The notes under the pieces were generated by a model. It ran no database searches, was not told where the DNA came from, and saw only the letters and a list, made by a program, of their open reading frames with translations. From Lytechinus pictus (Eukaryota), in contig NC_087245.1 in NCBI RefSeq assembly GCF_037042905.1, forward strand, positions 20,586,001 to 20,650,000: a stretch of DNA of 64,000 bases, in the 5' to 3' direction. The translations under genes and the position numbers were made by a program. Position 1 is the stretch's first letter, and the number at the start of each line of letters is the position of its first letter. This document shows, piece after piece, positions 25,961 through 45,038 of this stretch.

Positions 25961-27517
25961 ATAATACCACATTTCTCTAATTATTGAAATAAAAAACAAT
26001 TTGCCACTTAAACCCATTTCAAAATCTGACAGTTTTTTTAGAACCTCTTGCTTCAAAGTTAAAACATATTGAGTATATTTGAACTCGAAAAAAAACAGAT
26101 ATTATAAATGTCTGAATATATTGGCTCGTATTCTGAAGTCATGTAGACCACGGTCTAACTCTGTGCTAAAATTATGGGGAGCCAAAAAATCAGAAATTCA
26201 GTTTGTATTGTATCTTTCGTATGTTTACTATTTTGTTTCTTTTTGCTTCCATGATGAAGAAAAATACTTTAGATATCATTTCCAGACAATTATGGACAAT
26301 TTGAGTGCCAAATGAGTTGATAAATTGGATGTGCACTGTTAGGGATTTTTGCCCCAATTGGCTCTCCATAGCTAAACCACAAGTTTAAACCAGGGTTCAA
26401 TTTAAAAACTGAGTTCAGAATATGGGCCATTGAGAAATGTTGGTAAAACAATGTGCAGTGGAAGTAAACCACCTGCTATTTTGAACTACTCTGAAGAAAA
26501 TAACTGAAGGACAATGTTCAGAGATTCATGGTGCTATCCAATAGTTTTTTCTTCAATGTTACATTTATTCAAATTAGATATGTTGGGACTCGTATCTTCA
26601 GAATGCTGATAAATCATATTTGTAGGTGAAGTTAGTTTCATGATTATTGGTATTATAATTTTCTCACAAACAATCATGGAAGTTGTTATTGGCACAGCCA
26701 TTTAAATTCTGTTGGATTTGATATTCCTGGTGGTTTGAAGATTTTAAACCCCAGCTTCAGCAAAGTCCCAAACAACATTCCTTCCAGGAAGATATGTTCA
26801 GCACTCTCAAAGTTGTACTTCAATAAGAATCAACTAGATGCCAGTATGGACAACCTCTCTACATCTTTTAAATGTTTCTGTAGCCTTCACATATTCATTT
26901 CCAGGGCTGAATTTTTTTTTTTTTACAAAATTTATAACTCTGCTTCATACCATATTCAAATAATTCATATATTGTGCTAAACTTCACCCCATCAAACAAT
27001 AATGTCATTACTGTAAGATCTTCATTGTTTAAAGGGAGATTCTACTCCAAAATGCACTCTGGATTCAAGAACATAGAAAATGAATTATCAAATGCCCTTC
27101 ATGACAATGAACAGCCAAGAAGTCTTTGTTGAAAATTGGTGATTCAAAACAGCAGCTTTGTCCAAACGACATATTTGCATATTTTTTTGTAGCTAACACT
27201 GAGCATTAACATACTTTTATGTGCATTTGAGGTTCTGTATAACTTTACCAGCCAGTTCCAGAATGCTAATCCAAAACACTTGAATACTAAGTAGATCAAT
27301 TAGCTGACCATACAATGAACCCTCTCGGTCCCTTCACTCGAAGGTTTCTTACCAAAACATGCAGATAACTCTACCAAAGTCCTCAAGACACATTTCCTCA
27401 CTGGAACACTCTCCATGGTTCCTTTACATGAAATAATAAATAACAGAAATCTTAGAGGACAACGATAATGAACTATTGGATGGTTACAAATAAGAGTATG
27501 CCACACCATTCAAGATG

Positions 27518-28512
27518 TTATTCACCAGAACCTTCACCAGATCCGTCACCGGACCAGTCAAGAACTTCCTCACCTGACCCTTCCCCTGACATATCCTCAC
27601 TGGCCCATTCAGAAGAACCACCACCAGACCCTTCACCTGATACCCCATCTCCAGACCATTCAACAGATCTGTCACCGGACCAGTCAAGAACTTCGTCACC
27701 TGACCCTTCCCCTGACATATCCTCACTGGCCCATTCAGAAGAACCACCACCAGACCCTTCACCTGATACCCCATCTCCAGACCATTCAACAGATCTGTCA
27801 CCGGACCAGTCAAGAATTTCGTCACCTGACCCTTCTCCTGACATATCCTCACTGGCCCATTCAGAAGAACCACCACCAGACCCTTCGCCTGATAGTCCAT
27901 CTCCAGACCATTCAAGAACTTCGTCACTAGACCCTTCTGACACATCCTCACTGGCCCATTCAGAAGAACCACCACCAGACCCTTCGCCTGATAGTCCATC
28001 CCCAGACCATTCAAGAACATTGTCACTTGATCCTCCTCCTGACATATCCTCACTGGCCGATTCGAAAGATCCACCACCAGACCCTTCACCTGATAGTCCA
28101 TCTCCAGACCATTCACCAGATTTGTCACCTGACCATTCAAGAACTTCGTCACCCGATGTTTCTCCTGACATATCCTCACTGGCCCATTCAGAAGAACCAC
28201 CACCAGACCCTTCGCCTGATAGTCCATCTCCGGACCATTCACCAGATCCATCTCCGGACCGTTCAAGAACTTTGTCACCCGATCCTTCTTTTGATGAATC
28301 AACATTTGTTTGATTAGTGTCCTTGACTGGAGATGTAGCGTTCTTACAGAATGATGGAGGTGTGAACACTGAGATGTTTGTGATGCCCATCCGGATGCCA
28401 ATGAACTTGGTACTAACTGAATGGACAGTCGTGTGGTTCTCATCCTTCTCCATGACGATTTCTTTCACTGGCAAACAACCAGGGTAAGTGAATGTACCAA
28501 TCCAACTTTCCT
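27518..28512 (-). CDS. Ependymin-related protein A, exon 3: ependymin C-terminal part plus acidic Ser-Gly repeat tail
   Basis: ttttttctgtgcAG acceptor. (K)ESWIGTFTYPGCLPVKE...VFTPPSFC matches ependymin-family motifs and is followed in frame by EGSG/WSGD repeats to TAA at 27520-27518. Confidence 0.9.
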
Positions 28513-29270
28513 CTGCACAGAAAAAAAGAAAATTTAGATATTTTTAAAGCAATTGCACAAATTACTCTCCATTTATGCAGTGGCAAAGGGCAGTCTGCCA
28601 TCCCCCACCCGCCCCCCCCCCCCTCCCCTTTGGCTGATTTCGCCGGGGGGAAAAAACGAAAAAAAAAAATAAAGAAAGAGAACGAGAAGAAAAGGAAGAA
28701 AAAGAGGGAAAAAAGGTAACGGGGGAAAAAGGGAAAGAATAAACATAAAGAGGAGAAGGGTTAAACCGAAGGAAAGGGGGAAAGGAGGGAAAGAACAAAT
28801 CACGAAATACGAATAAATAAGTGAGAAAGGAGATATAACAGATAACAGATTGAACGGGAATTTATGACAGGAAAGGAAAAGAGGCAAGAATAAATGGGAT
28901 ATGAGGGTAGAATGGAATGAGCTAAATGCTATGTGAAAAGTTGAATTGAAAAAAATGAAGAAAAGGGCTGCCGATGATTGTAAATAAAGAACGGGAAGAA
29001 AGAATGGGATGGCGTAGAAGTATGAAGTCTATATAGGTTTGATAAATTTCATGCCATGACGGTAGCAATCAGGACAAAAAATAACTTTGAGAGGTTCCGC
29101 CCAAACATTGTCTATGTCCCTAGCCATGGACCTTCCTCCTCGGTCCATGCCCGATCCAAATTTTCTCGCTCGCAAAGTTATAGGAATTTTTCCACATTTG
29201 CCATATTGTTCCCCCTCAAAATATTTGGTTTATTACACGACTATGTTGTGTAAAACCTAAGTGATATAGC

Positions 29271-29835
29271 CCCACCCCCCCGGGGGGGGGGCACTTACAT
29301 TGACGAGTGGATACCATGCGCGACCCCAAAAACAAGTAAAAAGGATGTCTTTTTCAAGATAGGGCACGTTACGTACGTAACGTAATAAGGGTGTCAAAAA
29401 CACTAAAATAATGAAAAAGGGGTATCTATTTCGCCAGAATAGCTACGTGTTTAGGGTCAAATTTGCAAAGGGTGTAAAAAATTAAGACTAAAATGTTTTA
29501 GGATGTGCTTTTTGCCCCGAGGGTCAACACTATACGTGTTTAGAGTACAATTTGCCCGAGATGTGGGAGGTGGTACTAAACCCAATGATGTAGCCTTGTA
29601 GGTACCGACGACCGCTGTATTGTTTAGGGGTCAATTCAGGGAATACTTGCCAATAGTATCGTTTTATTAATTGTTTCCAATATTTGTTAAGGGTAGGAAG
29701 TTATGATTTCACACGCCAATACTTGTCAAGGGGTTCATTTTCAGAATATTGAAAATACGTGTTAAGGGTGCTTTTCGAGACCCTATGGTCGCGCATGATA
29801 TCCACTCGTCAATGGAAGTGCCCCCCCCCCCGGGG
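29271..29835. mobile_element. MITE with CCCGGGG termini
   Basis: About 45-bp TIR cccggggg..gcactt.cattgacgagtggata.catgcgcgacc, flanked by GATATAGC direct repeats (29263, 29836). Confidence 0.75.
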
Positions 29836-30236
29836 GATATAGCGGCCATCTGTAAAGTTTGATATGGCTGAATCTTGAGAGGTTTCGGTAGCGGAGGAGG
29901 GGGAGCGCTCATCACACTACTCCCGCGTTGAGCTTTGCGCTAATGCTCGCGTACAATCATGAAAACTCCTGTTCACATGATATGACCAGAAAATAGAATT
30001 TTGGCTCTTGCCCCCCACCCCCCCCCCCTCCCCTGACATTTACATTGAAATTGGTGTGATAAAAGATCACTCTTGATTAAAAGCCTCGCTCAAAGACATG
30101 TGTGGCGGTAGGGGATCGAAACCTGGACTTAATTGTGTCTACTCGGGCGCCTTAGACCTAACATCTACGGCACTCCCATTTTATTTTGAATTTTATTGTA
30201 TAGGGCAGATTGGCCAAAAAGATACATCGATGCCCA

Positions 30237-30690
30237 GGGGCCCATTTCATAAAGAGTTGCTATCATAACAGGTTGCTATGATAGCAACTCTGGTAGAATA
30301 GCAACTTGTACTTGCTATGCTAGCAACTTTGCATTTCTCAAAAGCACATTCGCTGGAAAGTCAACTTGAATATCTAACGAATTATTCCTACGAATTATTT
30401 GAAAAGTCATGTAAGAGGCTGATCAGGGGGTGATCCCCTTCCTCTCCACTATTTTGGGGGTAGTACAACGTGATCAGAATTATACCCTTTACAATGTCAA
30501 CTTGACGCTCCCCCATGACCAGCATCAAATATTTAACCCTATTTGACGCTCCAGTAAAAAGTTGACGCTCCTACTGGAGCGTCAACTTTTTATGAAATGC
30601 GCTGCAGCGTCAAATATCAAATTTGACGCTGCAAGTGAGAATTTGATGCTGTTTTGTGACTTGACGCTATATTTTTATGAAATGGGCCCC
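30237..30690. mobile_element. Harbinger-like MITE
   Basis: ggggcccatttcataaa ... tttatgaaatgggcccc with ttgacgct subrepeats. Confidence 0.7.
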
Positions 30691-31073
30691 AGATCTTGTG
30701 ATCTGGGTACATCTCTGTTAGCGTTTACATTACTGACACGCAGAGGCGTCGATCCTGGGGGGCAGGGGGGCGATCGCCCCACCAATGAAAATATTGGGGG
30801 CGCAAACATATCGTTTTACCCCCTCCCCAATAATTCCGCATGCATGTGCAAAAATGAAATAAGATTGCAGTGTTACACAGAAATCAGCAAGCGAGATTGA
30901 GATACACAACTCGTTCTTTATTTAAAATCGTGCTCAAAATGTCACTGGGCTCCCGCCGACTAAAACAACGTACGTCTGGGTCGTGAAAAGATAAATATTT
31001 TTGGAAAGTTAATCTGCATAATATAATTTTTCCCGCGTCGTCTGAAGAGGCTATAGAGAGATAATACACTTAC

Positions 31074-31273
31074 TTTGCTTTCCTGGAATTCTATTTGACC
31101 ACTCCTGCACCATGACGCCGCTTCCTACAATCTCATAGGATTTCTCAAAAGTAGCATTGGGTGGAATAGTGAAGTTGCTCCATGTTCCTAGCTGTTCCAC
31201 TGAGCATGTCTTGTTATCATGATTGATGACGTATTGTATCCCTTCATCATAAAGCATGATATACTCGTAAATA
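31074..31273 (-). CDS. Ependymin-related protein A, exon 2
   Basis: tttttatatcaacAG acceptor and A|gtaagt donor, phase 2/1. Encodes IYEYIMLYDEGIQYVINHDNKTC...IPPNATF...VQEWSNRIPGKQ. Confidence 0.92.
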
Positions 31274-31381
31274 CTGTTGATATAAAAAGAGGAAGGTATA
31301 TAGTAGAAAATATAACTGATAAGCAAATATCTAACGTTAGGTAGGGTATTATAGCTTCTCACACAACCTTATACTGTATGG

Positions 31382-32967
31382 CAGGGGTTCTCAAACTACG
31401 GCCAGCGGGCCGGATCCGGCCCGCGGAGCTTCTCAATCCGGCCCGCAAGACTCTGCTGGGTTTTTTTTATTCATTTTTAAAGGACAAGTCCACCCCAATA
31501 AAAAGTTGATTTGAATAAAAAGAGAAAATCCAACAAGCACAACGCTGAAAATTTCATCAAAATCGGATGTAAAATAAGAAAGTTATGATATTTTAAAGTT
31601 TCGCTTAATTTCACAAAATAGTTATATGCACATCCTGGTTGATATGCAAATGAGGAGACTGATGACATCATCCACTCACTATTTCTTGTGTATTTTTAAT
31701 ATGAAATGCAAAATATTCTAATTTTCTCCTCAGTGTCTGGTGAAACACTGATTAATTCCTCCCTGAACATGTGGAATTAGCATTGTTTAATTCTATATGG
31801 TTCAGTCAAGTTGGTCCTTATTGTCAAATTTGTAAAAAATGAAATATTGTATAATTCAAACAATAAAAACAAAAGAAATAGTGAGTGAAAAACATCATCG
31901 ACTCTCTCATTTGCATGTCACTGAGTTGTACATATAACTCTTTTGTGAAAAATGAGCGAAACTTTAAAATGTCATAACTTTCTTATTTTATATCCGGTTT
32001 TGATGAAATTTTCAGCAATATGCTAGTTCGATTTTTCTCTATTTATTCATATCAACAATTTTCTGGGATGGACTTGACCTTTAAGTCACAATATGAAACA
32101 TAGCTCAATATGATTACATTGTGTATCCATGTAGACCTAGCCGTAATAAAAGTTATGGCATTCAAATTAATTTGACTTTTAAACAAAGTTTAGTGGAGTC
32201 TTTTCTGCCTGTTCGATCTACTTTCTTATTAGATGACCAGCGCTGTTCTCACCATGTTTGGACCTACATACAGATGCGAAAGTGCATTTTCCACAATGAA
32301 CATTTTTTAAGAACTAACTCATACCGAAGTACCTTGACAGGGACCGCGGAACGGTTTTCAAAGTGGGGGGGGGGGGGCTGGCCATGCAAAAATCACATGG
32401 TCATTTTTACGTTTTTGTACATGGTTTTGGAAAAAAAATGGGGGGGGGGCTGAACCCCCCCCCCCTGCTTCCGCGGCCCCTTCTTGACCAGTGAACATTT
32501 GCACCAGTGCCTTCGTCTGGCAATTACACCTTTTGTGCCAAGGTTCAAGCAACTTGTTGCTGACAGACTGTCACTTTTCCCATATTAAAAGTGAATAGGA
32601 GACTGACATCATTGTTAGAGTCTAAAACAGACATGCTCTATTATTCATTCTACTTTGACTACAACAAATATTGATACTTCAAGACATTATCTGTCTCCCC
32701 AATACCAGGTATGTATAGGTACAATCTAGATTCCTTTTAACAAAGTACTACAATTTTGTTATCATTAATATTGACTCTCGCTGTATTTTGAAATCTTTTA
32801 TAATTTCGCCTGCGTTCCATATAAAACTGTTATAAATTTGTTGGATTAAATGCTCCCAAAATAAGGGCCAGATTGCACAAGAGAGCTTCTCGGACCCCGA
32901 CCGCAAGGGTCTTTGCGCTTCGCGCACATTTTTTTTTCTTAGTATCCACTTCATTTGAGAACCCCTG
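31382..32967. mobile_element. Non-autonomous hAT element containing two nested MITEs
   Basis: TIR CAGGGGTTCTCAAA / TTTGAGAACCCCTG and perfect 8-bp TSD CTGTATGG (31374-31381, 32968-32975). Confidence 0.9.
31481..32080. mobile_element. Kolobok-type MITE (AGG ends, TTAA target)
   Basis: ttaa|aggacaagtcca...tggacttgacct|ttaa with long imperfect TIRs. An inverted copy of the same family lies at about 1617-2212. Confidence 0.8.
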
Positions 32968-35170
32968 CTGTATGGAGTAGATACAAATCGGACATCCTTT
33001 CACGAGGGCAGCATCAGGAAAAGTAGATAGGCCTTCAGACATCCTGCAGCCCCACACTTGTAAATTACATTATAAAAATCTTATATTTAAAAAAAAATGT
33101 GTAATGGCAAACAGGGTACATATCCTAGTAAATAAAAAAATGTGAGCGCGAAGCGCGAGCTCAAATTTAGTTTGCATGTTAATTTTTTTTAAATCATATA
33201 AGCACTTTGATTATAAGCATGAATACGATGTATATCTCATCGAACAAGGGCTAAGTGCGCGCTGAAATTTAAGTTAATATGCTGACTTGAAATGGGACAT
33301 TATTTTAATAATCATTTGTAAAAAAAAAAAAAAAAATCATGAGCAGGTAATATATCTTACTAGACAAATAATACGAGCACGAATTACAGGCTGTTTTTTT
33401 TTTATTCAGACCTGAATAATGACATGAACCAGGTGCTTATTTTTAAATTGTTCCAGCATGAGGCGTGAGCTGAAATATTCTCTTATCATTAAATTGAAAA
33501 CTAGACATATTTCCAATCGCTATGTTATCCTCATCAATACAATATGTATACCTTTCAGCAGGCACTTCCTGCGTGAAGCGCGAGCAGACTTTTTATTTTG
33601 AAAATGGAGTGACCTGAAAATGTTGTTATTCGCCAATTCTTTCCCCGATTCGCTTATGGCTAATAATAATAACAGTGATATTGATAATAATTTATAAAAT
33701 TAATGCTAATAATAATAGTGATTATGGATAAATTATGACCGAAATCCCCCATTGTACATTACCTCTGATCTAGATCATGAACAAGCGCATGAAAAGAATA
33801 AGATATGCATATGATGACATATGTTGCCTGATTTAGAACACGTCTGGGTAGCGATATAAAATTTGATTTATCTCTATAATGTTAAAGATTTTCATTAAAT
33901 ATCATGTCAATCACAATTTGAACAGGGGCATTTCTTAGACTTAAGTCATTTTGCCAAGTCTAAATCATTATCATCTGCTCTTTCTTCATCAATATCGCCA
34001 CCGCCATCATCATCACCTTTACTTTATTGTTTTTTATAATTGACATTACATCTTATCTGCCTACCCTCCTCTAACCTTGGAGCTACTACAGTGTTATAGT
34101 ATAGCTCCATGTTCTAACAAGGGACCATCACATCATTATTTCGGTCAATTTTCATTTAGGTCATATTATATAGCCTCTAATGATTTCGTCATGAGCATAT
34201 GTAAATTGACGATAAAACGTTTTCAAACAGTGATAATGCATTCACATCGCGATTCACATATCAGTTATGTTTGTGATTCATTGTTGTAAAAGTGCCTAAA
34301 GTCATTTCATAGTCTTTGCGAGAGAAAAGGTCATATTCAAAGTATTCCTTGTCAAAATATTGTGTTTTGTTTTACAGGTCGCACAATCGTGATCACTGGA
34401 GACAATAAAGACGAAATCAAAATCAAAATAATCCGATCATTTTTTTTCAATTTCACTACTTTCTAACCACTCTTACACATTTTTATCAAGCTAAAACCTG
34501 TCTAGTTATATTTTAGAAATTATTGCCCGCGACCAAATTCTCTCTGGGACGGGGTAGGGCAAACAACATTTTACAAACATCAGACAGAATGCTACTCGTC
34601 TAGCCCGCTGTATGGGGCGGCGATGAGGATTAATTAAATTGAATTAATATATTTCGACATTTAATGTTTGCTATTTTCTATTCCATTTATCGAGCAAATT
34701 TTTATTGTGTAATCGTAGATAAGCTCTGAAAGAGACGCCCCCTATTTCCCGATTTCTTGGAATTTCTTCTCCAGGTGAAGATTTCGGCAGCTCATGAAGA
34801 ATCCCGAGAAAATCGTAAGGTGAGACGCGTATAATCTGTGTAAGAGCCTAAAAATACAGAGCTGGTCATGATTCCTCATAAATTAGTTGGAAATACATGT
34901 ATAATCATATTAAGTGTTTTTTTTCCTCTCATGCACAAGATGATTAAAAACGTGCAGTTAAATACGGATACCCCTTGCCTTTCCACAATTTGGCAACCTA
35001 CGTCGCTATGATATCAGCGACCGCTGTTCTTATTGTTAATTAGTTTACTTCTGTTTCGTATAAAGAAAATTATTAGATTATTTGAAAGCAACCGCTGAAC
35101 ATTGGAAAGGAACACTCGGGGCTCCAAATATTTATATAAAACCAGGTGAAAACGCTTGATAAGTACATAC

Positions 35171-35838
35171 CTTTTTCCTAGGAATTTGGCGTGTTTATCT
35201 ACCAGGATCCGCTTCCTTCGGTTAATGCCATCGAAGGTGATGTGGAAATGGTTTTTGACGCCATTGATGTGGTCCCACTCGGTGGCTTTTCCCTCCCATT
35301 GCGCCGGAGTTTGACAAGGAGAGCTCAGAGGTGGTGAGGGTGGCTGTTCTGTCACAGACTGAATGGGAGTTGACTCGGGAACGTTGATGGTTTCTTTTAG
35401 CTCCGATGATGGCGTTGTTGACGATTTTCTTGTTATGGAGTTCTGAGGAACAGATGAGGTTTGTATCGATTTCGATGAATATGGATTGTACTTGAAGTCA
35501 TTCAATCCATTTCCAGTAAACTGAGGAATTGGTAAGGTTTCTTTCGATTTCGATGAAGATGGCTTGTAATTAAAGTCATTCAATCCATTTCCTGTCATAC
35601 CAAACTTTCCACCGTAATCATTAATGGAATTCTTCGAGTAGAAAGGCTTTGGATGAAAGAAGGAACTTATCTCTTTCTTTAAGTATTCTTTGTTGGTAGC
35701 GTACCCGAAGTATTTCTTCAGGAGTGAATTGCCAGCAGTCTTATGACTCCTGTCATCTTGGCCGATCATCTGCCCCAGTGCAACGGTCGTGAAGGCCAAA
35801 AGTAAAACCAAGAGTTCCCTGAAGAGAGGCATGGTCAT
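35171..35838 (-). CDS. Ependymin-related protein A, exon 1: signal peptide, long N-terminal extension, start of ependymin domain
   Basis: MTMPLFRELLVLLLAFTTVALG signal peptide and the ependymin N-terminal motif PCQTPAQWEG. AG|gtatgt donor, phase 2. Joined CDS is 668+200+995=1863 nt, giving 620 aa. Confidence 0.92.
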
Positions 35839-35897
35839 AGATTGCTCCTTGATGACCGGGGTGGCAAAAATGATACTAAATGAAACTGTTAATCGCG

Positions 35898-35904
35898 TTT
35901 TATA
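35898..35904 (-). promoter_or_regulatory. Candidate TATA box of ependymin-related gene A
   Basis: CTATAAAA on the - strand about 60 nt upstream of the ATG, with pyrimidine-rich Inr-like TCATTT/TTTAGT about 20-30 nt downstream. Confidence 0.5.
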
Positions 35905-38030
35905 GCAGAAGTGGCGCTAGATCATGCATGCTTATTAAGCAGAAGCGCTCCTAACACTAAAGACGGAACTTCCCGTTTCAAAGCGGACACAATGCAATCT
36001 CGGCACACTTCCGACTTCTTTTTTTGATGGTGGGGGGGGGGGGGTGAACGATATGATGACAGAATTGAAATTTGGTGAACAATAGATTGGCTATTTAGGA
36101 GTTAATCTATGATTTGGAAATATATTAAACATGATCGAGCATAATATCCCTTCAATCATGACCACCTTGCTATGTGCATACGTCACAACATCGAACTCCA
36201 CCTCCATACTCATGGTCAATACGACCAGCATCATCGCGATATTTCGCTCTCCAACATCGTCAAACACTAAGATTACTGTTTTCTTCATCTTCTTCTTTTT
36301 TTTCTTCTTTTTCTTCTTCTTCTTCTCCTCCATCTTCTTCTTCCCTTTTCTCTTCTTTTTCTTCTCTTCTTCTTCTCCTTCTTTTCCATCTTCTCCTTTT
36401 TCTTCTCTTCTTCTTCTTCTCGTTCTTTTTTCTTCTTCCTCTTCTTATTATTTTTCTACTTCTTTTATATATCTATATGGATGTATTTAATTTTGTTTAT
36501 GTTAGCAAACTGTTTGCTAACTGTTTGCAAAATAATGTTCGACCCAATTGAAGTTGACATTATGTTCATATATTTGTTACTCTTAATTCGTTTAAACTTT
36601 TTTTTTTTTCGTTTTTAATTTACACGACCCAACAGAAATCAGTCTTGTAACTGTTTGGGATGTCTGATAGTGTTTAAATAAAAATCAATCTAAACTGAGC
36701 TGTAACGCGTTTAAAAACTATCAGTCAATATTACCATCCTCCTGGCACCTTCCTCGTGATAAGAGGGTCTTGTTGATGAAAACTTCTGACCATAAACAAA
36801 ACTAGTAAATGGCTTAATTAACGGAGATACGAACTATTCCGCCCTCGCTGATAATATATGGGGGGGGGCGAGGAAAAATAACCTGAGTTTTTACGATAAC
36901 AAATTTTGTGCAAAAGGGACCCGGAAGACATGGGCGGAAATATATATGATGTCGTATTATTCAAGTGGGGGGGGGGGGTGGAGCAATAGTTTCTCCCCCC
37001 CTGAATAAAAGGTTTGCCGCTTGAATTTTCGTCGGTGCTGGTGGGCACTACTACCCTATTGCCTATTGTTAGCCAACTATGATTTATAGCCCTGCAAACA
37101 CCGCAGCACTACCATCACATCCAAAGACGTCACCACCATTTTGTAACACAAATCATCGCTCAAGCCCCCACAAAATTTTCGACCACATCATCTCACTTCT
37201 TACCACCACTATATTATCTTCATCTTTAGTATTGTCACCACTACCTTGGGGAGCTTTGGGGAGCTGAAACCCCCTCAAAACTCGCTCAAGCCCCCATAAC
37301 AAAAATTCGACCACAAAGAAAATAAAATGTATTTAGGCCCTATATGCGTAGATATTGTATTGAATACTGCAGCATATCATTAATATCGTAAAATTAAAGC
37401 TTTTACTATACAAATTCTAAATTTTCTCGCTTGGTCGCTGTACACTCCCTCGCAAAACACAATAATATCCAAATGCAGAAGACATTAATGCAGTCTTATA
37501 AAGTGCGAGTAAAGTTAATAATCCCCTACAAGAATGCATATTTACTTTTTTTTCTTAAAATTTATCTCCCTACTTCACCCAACACGAATAAATGCCGTAA
37601 AATTCCCGTTTTAACTAGATTTGTGTACATTCGTGTGAAATTTAATAATTCTTCATATGTTGTGCGTTTTTTAAAGAAAATGATTCGCTCACTATCATAT
37701 AGTTTAGAGTCAGGTATGTCGATCCATGTTTCGTATGGGGGTGAAAAATATCAATTTTAAACAGAACTTTGCACATGAAGAGCGCAAACAATGTATGTTT
37801 GATATAGTATTTCAATGTCAAGTATATATAATGGTTTTATAGTGCTTTCCGATGATTTTTCATACTTATTTTGGCATTGAATACTATGAATATTTCAAGT
37901 TGTCAAAATTATTGGGGGAGCAAATTGATATGTTTGGTTCCCCCCCCCCTATATTTTGCCCTTCAGGATCGACGCCTCTGTTTAAAAGTATTTCTATTTC
38001 TCGCAATATTATATACTAAAATGCGTTATA

Positions 38031-40617: not shown

Positions 40618-41132
40618 TTAATCCCTTCTTCCACTCCTCATGGCAGCATCGTATGCTTTGTGCAAGATACCATCGGTCATTCGACCCATCCCTTCGGGGA
40701 TTCGTCGGTGATCTCCGGACAGAATCGCCTCGAGCAGACTGCGTTCGTTTTCCATTCGGCTCGGGTCGATCATTCTCTCTCGCTTGTTCTGGGAGGACCT
40801 CGGCGCTTGTGGTCGGCGGACCGGAACGTTGCTCGGGATTCTTCGGCTGGATTGAAGACGAGTTCGAGGGTTGGCTGGAATTCCATCCCCATACCTAGTA
40901 CGAACTGGTCTTGACCGAGTTTCGGTTTTCTGTGCCTTAGGTGTGACCGTAAGATTGGTGTCGTTACAAAACGATGGTGGTGTGAAGACGGACATGTTTG
41001 CTACATTTTCCCGGAGATCAAAGAACCTGGTACTGACCGATTGAATCATGGTCTTGTTTTCGTCCTTCTCCATGAATATCTCGGTCACAGGCCAGCAGCC
41101 ATTATCGGTAAATGTACCGATCCAGCTCTCTT
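40618..41132 (-). CDS. Ependymin-related protein B, exon 3: ependymin C-terminal part plus Arg-rich tail
   Basis: ttttctcatgcAG acceptor. (K)ESWIGTFTDNGCWPVTE...VFTPPSFC, then a 115-aa basic extension to TAA. Confidence 0.9.
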
Positions 41133-41267
41133 CTGCATGAGAAAATCATGAAAAAGCAAATAAGCAAGAATCAGGAACAAATATCCCTTTTTCTATTTTG
41201 GGACAATGCTTAAGAAGCTATATACTTTGTTCGTAAACATGATAAAGAAGAAAAAAGTGTTACTTAC

Positions 41268-41473
41268 TTTGCCTTCCTGGGATTCTGTCAGACCACTCCT
41301 GCACCATGAAGCCATTTCCTGGAGCACCAATCTCGTAGTAGTCTTCCAGAGTGGCATCAGATGGAATGGTGAAGTTGCGCCATGTTCCTAGCTGTTCCAC
41401 TGTGCATGTGTTGTAGTTGTGATTGATGACGTATTGTATCCCTTCATCATAAAGCATGATGTACTCGTAGATC
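41268..41473 (-). CDS. Ependymin-related protein B, exon 2
   Basis: ttcccctatatAG acceptor and A|gtaagt donor, phase 2/1. Encodes IYEYIMLYDEGIQYVINHNYNTC...YEIGAPGNGFMVQEWSDR. Confidence 0.93.
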
Positions 41474-41489
41474 CTATATAGGGGAAATA

Positions 41490-41800
41490 ATAATGATAAT
41501 GAAAATAATAATAACAATAATAATAATTATATGCAACATTTATATAGCGCTTAATACAATGTTTCTAAGCGCTGCATACTATTACCCCGGTTTTAGCACG
41601 ACTATACCTGATCGGGCGCTATATAGAGCATTCAAGGATTTTTTTTTCCTACCGGGTACCCACTTAATTACTACACCTGTATGGAAAGTGGCAAATGTTG
41701 ATAAACGTATTGTCAAATGACGCGAGTTCCATGGTGCATTCGAACCCCGGACCTTGTGGTTCAAAGTCCGGAGACTTATCCACTGAGCCACAACACCAAC
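41490..41800 (-). mobile_element. tRNA-derived SINE in intron 1 of ependymin gene B
   Basis: - strand reads TGTGGCTCAGTGGATAAG...GGGTTCGAATGC, aagtgggtaccc, gcgctatataaatg and a (TTA)n tail. Confidence 0.8.
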
Positions 41801-42427
41801 GTATTTAGTTGTGATGTTTTTGTTACCAAGCATTTAAGACCCTTTGCATGATAATTATTTTGAGGTTAGATAAGTTTGCTTTACATCCCAGCGACTAGCC
41901 GACCGATTTAAATATCATGATTTTGTTCGAATTTTCATTACTATTGGACACATTTGACTTAATTGTTAACATGCAAAATTTATCAACAAATTTATCAGGC
42001 CTACCAATTCGACAACATCGATATTGAGTATGATTTCGCGAAATAAACGGAATTTCAATTATCCAACTATCGGTCCCATGTGAAATTCATCAACAGGTAT
42101 TTTAAAAGGGGCATGACGACCCAAAGATGACGTCACTACTTTCTATAAGGGGTTTAATAGAGCTACTTGACCTACACCTCGCTTTTTATATTCGTATTTT
42201 TCTCTTTCTTTGTCCTTCCTCTTTCCACCTCTTTTTCCGAGTATTTTCTTTCTTTATTTCGCTACTTACAAAAAAAAAAAAAATACAGGGGCTGTCGTCC
42301 CTGACCCCCCCCCCCCCCCCGTTTCAGGGACCATGAAAGATATAGATACCTATATATGGTGTTGACATGTTTTGCATTACACAAATCTAATAATTAGAAT
42401 GATGTTGTGTTTTTTTTTATTTAATTG

Positions 42428-42665
42428 AAGTAGCATTGAAAACTTTTAATCGAATTGCTCTTTTGATATTAAGAATTATATGAAATCGTTTGAACATTTA
42501 CAAAATTGACATTGGTCAATGGAAAAGTCCCCCCCCCAAAAAAAAAAGTAGCATTGAAAACTTTTAATCGAATTGCTCTTTTGATATTAAGAATTATATG
42601 AAATCGTTTGAACATTTACAAAATTGGCATTGGTCAATGGAAAAGTCCCCCCCCAAAAAAAAAAA
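42428..42665. repeat. Tandem duplication (~118 bp x2)
   Basis: aagtagcattgaaaacttttaatcg...ggaaaagtcccccccc aaaa repeated almost exactly. Confidence 0.9.
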
Positions 42666-42846
42666 AAAATCAGCAACAGCGGGGGAAGGCAATTCAGACA
42701 AATATTTGTTTATTTAATGGCAGCTCCCCCGCTTCATCACCGACACACCCCCTCCTTCTCTCTCCATTTCTCTCTCTCAGACTAAATCGTGTCCCACGCC
42801 AACTCATATTCATCCATGTATAACTCCCAAGTCCCAACACGCACCC

Positions 42847-42885
<39 letters not shown>

Positions 42886-43464
42886 CACACACACAACACT
42901 CCAGACCTTCACACCTTTGTATACTCTCTCATACAATTTCAAAGGGATCATCATCATCATCAAAACACCCACACTGAAAGAAAACAGTAATTTAACACAA
43001 TTTAGGAGGTTACTTGAAGTAGAGTAAAGATGAGTTCAAGGATCACAATCAGGGGCCCGTATAACACAAAGCTTAACAATCATCAGGGGCCGCGGAAGCG
43101 GGGAGGGGGCTTCAGCCCCTCCCCCTACTTTTTTCCAAAACCGTGTACAATTACGTAAAAATGACCATATTATGATTGTGATTTTTTGCATGGTCAGCCC
43201 CCCCCCCCCCCAACTTTGAAAACCGTTCCGCGGCCCCTGATGATCAAAAAACATAATGATGACGATTGACTTCATTGACTATACCATGTACAATCAATCG
43301 TGAAAATCAAGCGTACGATTAATCGCTAAGTTTCGTGTTACGGCACCCTGGTGTCCTTTTTAATTGCTGCATAATTATAGCCCATCGATATTCATATTGA
43401 TATCGATGATAAAAAAAGTCACAGGGTAACCAGGGTATCATGCACAATACGGAAACCGCCTTAA

Positions 43465-44044
43465 AGGGATGGTCCGGGCTGGAAGTATTTATAGCTAAAT
43501 TAATAGTTGAATTCACTGAGCAAAATGCCAAAAATTTCATCAAAATCGGATAACAAATAACAAAGTTTTTGAATTTTAAACTTTAGCAATATTTTGTGAA
43601 AACAGTCGTCATGAATATTCATTAGGTGGGCTGATGATGTCACATCCCCACTTGTTCTTTTGTATTTTATTATATGAAATTAGGTTTATTCAAATTTTTT
43701 CCTCCAAGAACTAGAAGAAAGGGATTGACAGCTGATTTAGTGCATTAGATATTTATTGCTGCAATGTATTTCATTACAAGGGAGACATATTATTCACACA
43801 AGTATGAAATAATGAAAAAATTATGATTTTATGTAATAACATAAGAAAACCGAAAGTGGGGATGTGACATCATCAGCCCACCTAATAAATATTCATGACG
43901 ACTGTTTTCACAAAATATTGCTAAACTTTAAACTTCAATAACTTTATTATTTATTATCCGATTTTAAAGAAATTTTCGGCATTTTGCTCAGTGAATTCTA
44001 CTCTATGTATTAAGATATAAATATTTCCAGCCCGGACCATCCCT
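43465..44044. mobile_element. TTAA-flanked (Kolobok-like) MITE with ~190-bp TIRs
   Basis: agggatggtccgggctggaa ... ttccagcccggaccatccct, with IRs extending to gatgatgtcacatccccactt. Confidence 0.8.
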
Positions 44045-44592
44045 TAAAACCGCGCGATCCAGGGTCCGCTATAACGTACCAACGTTATTCTCGAACGCTT
44101 CCGGTCATTGAGCATTATCGGGGGGGGGGGGCAGATTCTAGTACATGGCTATTCAGAAGAATCTGAAAAGGATGATTTAAAAAAAAATATATAAAAAATT
44201 GCAAGGGACTAATTTAAGAAAAAGAAATTGTAAATGTTTTTCAAAAGTTCGGGCTAATCACTTATTACCAGACTATTTAAGTGATTTAAGACATGGATAA
44301 GATAGTAAGGGACCATCAAAATCCTACTATCAGGAAATTATTCATCATTTTATCGCTTTTATCTTCCTTTATTTCTTGCGATCTCCTGCTAAGTAAACCA
44401 TTATTTTGAATAAGAGTTGCACCATTGCGCAGGGGGGTATACATGTATACTAGATGATCAACAAAAGTTTATTAATTTATTTCTTTATTCATTTATTTAT
44501 TTATCTATTCATTCATTTATAAATGATGAACGAAATATTTTTCAAAATTTGGTGAAATTAGCTTTGATAATTGTGTTAATTGAATATCTCAC

Positions 44593-45038
44593 CTTTTCCC
44601 TGGAAGCTGGGCGTGTTTATCTTCCATGATCCGCTTTCTTCTGTTAACGCCATCGAATGTGATGTTGAAACGGTTGTTTATGCCCTGGATGTGATCCCAC
44701 TCGCTGGCTCTTCCCTCCCATTGCTCTGGGGTGTGGCAAGGGGTGGCGCCCACGGCTGGTCTAAGCCTTGATGCTGTCTGGGCATTGTCTATTGGTTCGG
44801 CGTTGACTGGTTCGTAAACGAACTCATCATTAGGCCTATACCGATTTATTGGGACTTCATCGATGTCGGGGTTACTAACGCGTACCTTGATCGGCCTACG
44901 ATGAAAATCACGAGCTTGGTGTGGTTGGAGTATGGCCCGAGCTTTTCCGAACGCCTTCCCGACATCGACCCGTCCCAAAACGATGCCGAGAGACCCAAGA
45001 AAGATAAGGATAACGAGATCCCTTGTTGGTGCCATCAT
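44593..45038 (-). CDS. Ependymin-related protein B, exon 1: signal peptide, N-terminal extension, start of ependymin domain
   Basis: MMAPTRDLVILIFLGSLGIVLG signal peptide and PCHTPEQWEGR motif. AG|gtgaga donor, phase 2. Joined CDS is 446+206+515=1167 nt, giving 388 aa. Confidence 0.92.

Follow-up and report, generated by a model that had tools for sequence, protein, structure and literature searches.

The window (the whole 64,000-nt stretch of Lytechinus pictus DNA that was analysed) is AT-rich animal DNA, with 30-43% GC in all 2-kb bins but one, and carries on its minus strand two genes for ependymin-related (EPDR) proteins, gene A and its tandem paralog gene B, Table 1. Gene A (35838..27518) has three exons encoding 620 aa. 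When the exons were joined by script, the spliced coding sequence came to 1863 nt, that is 620 codons followed by TAA, with the frame intact, and both introns are canonical GT..AG introns on the minus strand. The encoded protein is built of four parts: a signal-like N-terminus (residues 1-23), an N-terminal extension (24-174), an EPDR domain (175-345) and an acidic tail (346-620). The third exon lies in a minus-strand frame, 27518..28543, which is open over 341 aa and passes through FTPPSFC before entering the acidic repeat; within this frame, exon 3 begins at 28512, as judged from an AG acceptor with a polypyrimidine tract. This exon contains the entire tail together with the final strand and Cys of the EPDR domain, and because the last EPDR Cys and the tail thus share one exon, the fusion of the two is independent of splice choice. 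A single AATAAA/ATTAAA signal is found within 1.5 kb 3' of the gene A stop, at 26569-26564.

Table 1 Features of the EPDR locus in the window (all on the minus strand)
Feature	Position	Strand	Basis
Gene A, start codon (35838-35836) and predicted signal peptide, residues 1-23	35770..35838	-	hydrophobic core and small residues before Gln24, by eye; helix 2-23 in the ortholog model
Gene A, N-terminal extension, residues 24-174 (151 aa)	35317..35769	-	rich in Ser/Lys/Pro/Thr/Asn; internal duplicated unit of ~25 aa
Gene A, first part of EPDR domain, from Cys175 to end of exon 1; donor GT at 35170	35171..35316	-	joint 31273/35171 in X1, X15 and X5 contigs
Gene A, exon 1	35838..35171	-	GT donor
Gene A, intron 1, 3897 nt, GT..AG	31274..35170	-	joint skips 3897 nt, CT..AC on the plus strand
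Gene A, exon 2, middle of EPDR domain	31074..31273	-	PF00811 match, splice sites and contigs
Gene A, intron 2, 2561 nt, GT..AG	28513..31073	-	joint 28512/31074 skips 2561 nt, CT..AC; X1, X15, X5
Gene A, start of exon 3, C-terminal part of EPDR domain to last Cys (Cys345)	28346..28512	-	PF00811 match
Gene A, linker, residues 346-380: two N-glycosylation sequons, then first acidic Ser-Gly stretch	28241..28345	-	aligns with the single-copy tail of P0002
Gene A, six tandem acidic Ser-Gly/Trp units (42, 34, 33, 42, 42, 42 aa)	27536..28240	-	Tandem Repeats Finder and delimitation; contig coverage by X1, partly X15
Gene A, last five residues and stop TAA (27520-27518)	27518..27535	-	sequence
Gene B, EPDR domain and 115-aa basic tail	40618..45038	-	exon ends approximate

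Structure and expression of gene A

At the N-terminus, a signal peptide was recognised by eye from a hydrophobic core with small residues at -3 and -1, so that secretion is predicted; the C-terminus is without a hydrophobic stretch, and a membrane or GPI anchor is therefore not expected. The N-terminal extension (25 Ser, 16 Lys and 15 Pro among its 151 residues) is placed among disordered sequences by its charge and hydropathy and has a pLDDT below 50 in a model of the ortholog from L. variegatus, XP_041478158.1, in which the extension is conserved with two indels. Intron 1, which follows this region, contains very high-copy interspersed repeats, and the depth of the sequencing runs placed on the locus peaks there at 31374-32246.

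The membership of gene A in the EPDR family is established by profile and structure-based comparisons. The Pfam model PF00811, with a curated cut-off of 32.3 bits, matches exon 2 with E 1.6e-12 (48.1 bits, profile positions 6-79) and exon 3 with E 5.7e-9 (36.6 bits, profile positions 79-128 of 128), the two exons together spanning profile positions 6-128 of 128. With Pfam matches admitted at E up to 1, only PF00811 was found in the reading frames of exons 2 and 3. The whole EPDR domain of the ortholog, which is 93% identical to gene A in this domain and with which the alignment was made, aligns with EPDR1/MERP1 (PDB 6E7O, 6JLA, 6JL9, 6JLD); residues 168-351 match residues 14-194 of the 198 of 6jla_A with E 9.7e-38. 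The original prediction from the letters alone had called the product ependymin-related, given it a signal peptide and placed a splice junction at 31074/28512: the first holds on both exons, the second is borne out by our inspection by eye, and the junction proved to be correct, with GT..AG ends on the minus strand.

For EPDR1, the structure paper describes a LolA-like fold in which a hydrophobic groove runs deep, three disulfide bonds, a homodimer and the ability to bind liposomes of anionic lipid. By homology, the head of gene A would be expected to share this fold and its groove and to form dimers as EPDR1 does, and ligand binding is predicted on the same grounds. Whereas three disulfide bonds are reported for EPDR1, the gene A protein has four Cys (175, 246, 302, 345) and none elsewhere. 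Cysteine profiles with conserved Cys pairs are given in a 2018 survey of the EPDR family (PMC6280359), and in our own reading the four Cys of gene A would fit the first of these profiles. An AlphaFold2 model of the ortholog, built from a 13-row alignment, has a mean pLDDT of 47, with strands at 175-277 and 321-326 and low confidence for residues 248-321. EPDR1 is secreted and N-glycosylated, as gene A is by prediction, with two sequons in its linker; the EPDR1 chains, however, have 194-198 residues and consist of the domain only, whereas gene A adds the 151-aa N-terminal extension and a 275-aa acidic tail.

For evidence of transcription, four public sequencing runs were placed on 27300-36000, three of them as contigs (X1, X15, X5) and one as raw RNA reads (X19). 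The joints 28512/31074 and 31273/35171 both occur in contigs of three of the four runs (X1, X15 and X5, from three studies and under two organism labels); the kinds of these runs are guesses ('RNA?' or '?'), and we take them to be RNA-derived because their joints lack introns. Record 2 of X1 joins 31249-31074 to 28512-28202, and record 8 of X15 joins exon 2 to exon 3 and reaches 28184, which takes both of them about 140-160 nt past the last Cys codon (28348-28346) and into repeat unit 1. A further X1 contig lies at 27977-28189, and X1 has depth in every bin down to 27300, while X15 is without depth in one repeat bin, a gap of the kind expected when short-read assembly breaks off in repeats. 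The original prediction had asked for transcripts across 31074/28512 and on into the repeat, and this is what the contigs provide: they cross the junction, pass the last Cys and enter the repeat, with others covering the repeat and the 3' end. The X5 contigs (90% likeness) have no depth below 28173, so that the tail of that species is not covered by this run, and X19, which is on record as RNA, showed no depth on the gene A exons in the roughly 6% of the run that was read and counts neither way. No joint inside exon 3 is found among the 15 joints listed; 201 further joints are in the data, and minor isoforms beyond those listed are possible. Taken together, we have very little doubt as to the reality of the gene and of its architecture.

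The paralog, gene B, lies 9 kb upstream of gene A on the same strand and has the same three-exon layout. Residues 1-149 of the L. pictus protein LOC129266944 (P0022) are 100% identical to the product of 45038..44592. Like gene A, gene B has N- and C-terminal extensions besides the EPDR domain, and the EPDR domains of the two are 71% identical; the tails, in contrast, are an acidic repeat in gene A and a basic, non-repetitive sequence in gene B. The gene B tail has a charge of +12 and is conserved in a relative from Diadema (P0004, +10) and in a fragment, P0010.

The acidic tail and its relatives

Counted from the last Cys, the tail comprises 275 aa, with 71 Gly, 65 Ser, 40 Glu, 28 Asp, 15 Trp and 8 Lys or Arg, and carries a net charge of -60 before any modification. 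It contains 37 Ser-Gly dipeptides, each of which has an acidic residue at most four residues away, and one to three acidic residues both within +2 to +9 and within -6 to -1; 25 of the 37 take the form SGxG. Trp stands at -1 in 10 of the 37 and at +3 in two, and at +2 in none. The order of the two residues is uneven, with 37 Ser-Gly as against 21 Gly-Ser, and in 5000 shuffled tails the mean number of Ser-Gly was 16.7 ± 3.1 and the maximum 29, so that 0/5000 reached 37, although this test overstates the significance, the six repeat units being mutual copies and the 37 Ser-Gly therefore not independent of one another. With Tandem Repeats Finder two periods are obtained, one of 126 nt (27525-27915, with 96% matches) and one of 102 nt, and DNA identity among the three 3' units is 96%. 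Within the repeat the Trp residues are spaced by 17, 17 and 8, which points to an older inner period of perhaps ~17 aa. With G+S at 49.5% and D+E at 24.7%, the tail lies beyond the charge-hydropathy line, on its disordered side, and in the AlphaFold2 model of the ortholog, which is weak overall, it is without secondary structure at a pLDDT of 31-45; as judged from composition and model, it is almost certainly intrinsically disordered.

These counts agree closely with what had been predicted. The in-frame run past PPSFC into units of 33-42 aa is confirmed, including the unit given as an example; the estimate of about 37 Ser-Gly, nearly all flanked by Asp or Glu, turned out to be exact in number and to apply to every one of them; of those said to lie, in many cases, next to Trp, 10 have it at -1. 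The extent of the repeat had been given as ~256 aa at 27518..28288. This interval does correspond to the last 256 codons and the stop; the tail as such, taken from the last Cys, is the longer one of 275 aa.

When 1.84 billion representatives were searched exhaustively by HMMER, the exon 3 product gave 15 matches at E up to 0.001, among which a single strong one (P0001, E 1e-92) is XP_041478158.1. This L. variegatus protein bears the RefSeq name "hyphally regulated cell wall protein 1-like", with PF00811 precomputed on the same protein, and shares all four parts with gene A, of which it is the ortholog. Its tail has fewer units than the 275-aa tail of gene A (157 aa, 22 Ser-Gly, 8 Trp, charge -33), and ends in the same closing residues. 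In exon 1, the X5 contig differs from gene A by three indels, with 18 nt missing near 35588 and 9 nt added behind 35442; two of the three coincide with XP_041478158.1, where six residues are absent and three are extra. A fragment family of five members, P0002 (108 aa), runs from the EPDR C-terminus into an acidic tail that is present in one copy and contains five Ser-Gly and one Trp. Since this tail aligns with the linker and the first repeat unit of gene A, the repeat apparently started out as a single acidic stretch with Ser-Gly, amplification coming later. The difference between 275 and 157 aa in sister species, together with the 96% DNA identity of the three 3' units, implies that much of the tail length in gene A is recent, and it may be under weak constraint.

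Within its own 812-Mb assembly, a search with the tail returned only the self-match (one among 148 scored candidates), and among 5 candidates a scan with PF00811 detected no exons beyond four, all of which belong to gene A or gene B; both counts are lower bounds. Word-index searches gave none among 7999 scored candidates at E 0.001 for the exon 3 product against longer proteins, two matches among 8000 scored for P0001 at near lengths, and two among 105 for the EPDR region alone. They found no ortholog in S. purpuratus, a result of little weight for this and other urchins, as the same searches also missed the Diadema protein that HMMER detects. In the ESM Atlas, the best score obtained with the tail was 0.79, below the useful level. 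A maximum-likelihood tree of seven EPDR domains (the 41-residue fragment of P0002 being omitted) leaves the order of gene A, gene B and Diadema as an open fork, with a stem branch of 0.18 for gene A as against 0.054 for gene B. The pairwise identities (A-B 71%, A-Diadema 63%, B-Diadema 76%) hint at a later A/B duplication followed by fast evolution of A, if identity can be taken as a guide. Gene A is a transcribed, lineage-restricted gene with a new EPDR architecture.

Possible roles of the tail

What such a tail might do is suggested by its likeness to glycosaminoglycan (GAG) acceptor regions. Of the readings considered we favour, at somewhat short of an even chance, that the tail is a GAG-acceptor region and the protein a secreted EPDR proteoglycan. 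Some of the 37 acidic Ser-Gly sequons would then receive Xyl from a Golgi xylosyltransferase, chains of chondroitin/dermatan or heparan sulfate would grow on these sites, and the EPDR head would become a soluble proteoglycan, kept hydrated and retained in extracellular matrix or fluid; the 275-aa polyanionic tail itself would have arisen as a Ser-Gly/Trp unit of 33-42 aa was recently amplified in tandem. All of the glycosylation steps in this scheme are inferred. GAG addition requires Ser-Gly with acidic residues around it, yet such a context by no means guarantees it, and with sites about seven residues apart not all of them can carry chains. The genome does encode a GAG machinery, as profile searches above cut-offs found, by exon-by-exon matches, one locus for Xylo_C, several for Glyco_transf_64 (EXT/EXTL-type) and three to four for CHGN-type domains.

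The original prediction had also named Ser-Gly in acidic context as the xylosyltransferase acceptor, and determinants of GAG priming are set out in two papers. According to PMC10570366, xylosyltransferases add Xyl to Ser-Gly within unstructured regions, and initiation of chondroitin sulfate (CS) proceeds without sequence selectivity. A 2026 preprint (PMC13405426) attributes the xylosyltransferase-dependent addition of CS to disordered regions to a cluster of acidic residues with a Trp close by, and states that additional Ser-Gly lead to a longer chain and that the sequon is functional in Drosophila too. The determinants named across these two texts (Ser-Gly, several of them, acidic flanks, nearby Trp and disorder) are combined in the repeat units of gene A, with disorder judged from composition. 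At +2 of the acceptor Ser, where the betaglycan and SULF2 sequons examined in these papers carry an aromatic residue, the tail never has Trp; in both sources, however, the +2 aromatic enhances priming and does not define the class of proteoglycan. By analogy with mammalian rules, the combination of acid and Trp would lean towards heparan sulfate as the chain type, with Trp at -1 or +3 in gene A and at +2 in the tested sequons. In published descriptions, the GAG regions of bikunin, betaglycan, syndecans, glypican-1, SULF2 and serglycin resemble the tail in that they are clustered Ser-Gly in disordered acidic stretches with aromatics nearby. This likeness does not extend to sequence homology, the Pfam scan of exon 3 yielding the EPDR family alone, and in contrast to gene A none of those cores has an EPDR partner domain.

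The tail could also be a calcium-binding domain, either densely phosphorylated or simply acidic, in which Golgi kinases of the Fam20C type would act on S-x-E and S-x-D serines and the polyanion would bind Ca2+ or mineral, as in the acidic phosphoproteins of biominerals. Fam20C kinases prefer S-x-E. The 65 serines of the tail include 25 in S-x-E and 23 in S-x-D motifs, and Fam20 domain matches were found at three loci of the animal's own genome; since the same serines form these motifs and the Fam20 loci are present, phosphorylation explains the tail sequence equally well, and the strong negative charge before modification is in line with it. Fish ependymins are described as calcium-binding in PMC2669641, and in the abalone paper plain EPDRs are major proteins of the prismatic shell matrix, although in the same paper these EPDRs, compared with 12 calcifier data sets (one from a sea urchin), matched only the H. 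asinina set, so that in this comparison no sea urchin skeletal protein was among the matches. What this explanation leaves unaccounted for is the conserved Trp beside Ser-Gly and the excess of Ser-Gly over Gly-Ser, and GAG addition and phosphorylation can, moreover, coexist on one tail. On balance we think it unlikely, yet a rival to be taken seriously.

We regard as unlikely the simpler idea that the tail serves as an entropic bristle, a disordered spacer with no modification or with mucin-type O-glycans, which would keep the EPDR domain soluble or pair electrostatically with basic partners such as the gene B tail. The strongly disordered, acidic composition of the tail would suit this role, as would the fast change in repeat number between species, which is seen in many spacer regions, and the conserved basic tails of gene B and the Diadema relative could supply the partner; a mere spacer, however, would need neither the Ser-Gly order that no shuffled tail reached nor the fixed places of Trp. 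That the repeat is not meaningfully translated at all appears highly improbable, whether one supposes an artefact of annotation, the decay of the gene end or an ORF antisense to plus-strand frames rich in Ser, Pro and Asp. The plus strand does have two open frames that span the repeat, one of 285 aa (27456..28313) and one of 152 aa (27472..27930), but the splice ends are GT..AG on the minus strand only, and the EPDR frame runs on without a stop. In addition, pN is smaller than pS in 14 of the 15 pairs of repeat units (small counts, and pairs that are not independent), and frame, motif pattern and closing residues of the tail are kept in L. variegatus despite the other copy number.

Returning to the proteoglycan, a bolder version of it can be formulated, which we put forward tentatively and with more doubt than belief: gene A might be the first ependymin-domain proteoglycan, a lineage-specific secreted core in which a self-amplifying GAG-acceptor cassette (Ser-Gly, acid and Trp) is carried on a lipid-binding EPDR head, partly filling the gap left by lectican and decorin in echinoderms and maybe forming a charge-complementary pair with its basic-tailed paralog. 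If true, the cassette would be a natural invertebrate 'GAG sequon' array, since it is short, modular and naturally repeated.

Novelty and relation to known proteins

EPDRs are widespread, secreted and described as single-domain proteins of about 200 aa, and their function is still unclear. In abalone, the shell-matrix proteins EDPR 1 and 2 are secreted invertebrate EPDRs that serve as extracellular matrix components; they are listed with a signal peptide and an ependymin domain without a repeat annotation, whereas gene A has the repeat tail. A polyanionic, probably glycanated tail would show the EPDR domain in use as the head of an extracellular matrix molecule, and a tailed EPDR of this kind would offer a handle on EPDR function in Lytechinus, a laboratory-model sea urchin genus. 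Echinoderms are without the classic secreted CS core proteins, the lectican and decorin genes being absent, according to a 2023 review of the echinoderm extracellular matrix (PMC10381214), and lineage-specific cores such as gene A are candidates for the role of the missing ones. While gene A is well established, its importance depends on biochemistry that is as yet inferred throughout.

No publication describing a Ser-Gly-tailed ependymin was found in a search with subscription journals and supplements outside its scope. In the 2018 family survey the terms 'repeat', 'extension' and 'low complexity' occur 0 times, as does 'ependymin' in the 2023 review. The statement in the original prediction that this architecture is not known from the family therefore stands with respect to papers and falls short with respect to databases, as the predicted L. 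variegatus ortholog is already in RefSeq under its misleading automatic name: the architecture is already public as an unrecognised, misnamed prediction. That name reflects composition only, and XP_041478158.1 should be re-annotated as an EPDR. For the rules of GAG-site selection that were proposed recently, in terms of an acidic cluster and Trp, the gene A repeat provides a natural test bed.

Extensions of the two EPDR genes

When the Pfam Ependymin profile was run over this urchin's own 812 Mb genome, it recovered exons of gene A, the gene carrying the acidic Ser-Gly/Trp repeat tail, and of its tandem paralog gene B only, a count that is to be read as a lower bound. If it is complete, this urchin would be without a "plain" short MERP-type EPDR, and both of its copies would carry extensions (see table).

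Features in and around the two EPDR genes (window positions)
Feature	Position	Strand	Remarks
N-terminal extension of gene A	35317-35769	minus	duplicated unit inside
Gene B, tandem EPDR paralog	40618-45038	minus	long extensions present, as in gene A
High-copy interspersed repeats	31374-32246 and 29046-29918		gene A introns; contig depth
Open frame, 285 aa, Ser/Pro/Asp-rich	27456-28313	plus	antisense to gene A repeat
Open frame, 152 aa	27472-27930	plus	antisense to gene A repeat

Within the N-terminal extension of gene A, a unit of ~25 aa (Gly-Asn-Gly-Leu-Asn-Asp-Phe ... Ser-Ser-Lys-Ser) is duplicated. The extension is separated from its L. variegatus counterpart by in-frame indels, so gain and loss of units is how both gene A extensions evolve. 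The gene B tail is 115 aa long, without repeats, and is kept, including its C-terminal end motif, both in a Diadema relative (P0004, charge +10) and in a fragment with a similar tail (P0010). Because the gene B tail is basic (charge +12) and that of gene A acidic, these two adjoining EPDR genes have tails of opposite charge.

A crinoid protein with similar repeats

Sequence search also matched the gene A tail (E 7.9e-11) to P0003 (Anneissia japonica XP_033113942.1), an EGF-rich crinoid protein of 2709 aa with a transmembrane-like end. At residues ~300-800 it holds dozens of acidic 17-aa repeats with E-W-A-S-G-D, identical in period and similar in motif to the inner sub-repeat of the gene A tail, a likeness that may reflect either shared ancestry or convergence.

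Intronic repeats and antisense frames

Contig depth is extremely high at the two intronic intervals of gene A in all four public runs, with a maximum of ~1.5e5, and the contigs there have numerous loose ends and internal joints. Both intervals consist of interspersed repeats of high copy number, which seem to occur in transcripts. The two plus-strand open frames were rejected as genes, being by-products of the repeat's composition, but gene finders could annotate them.
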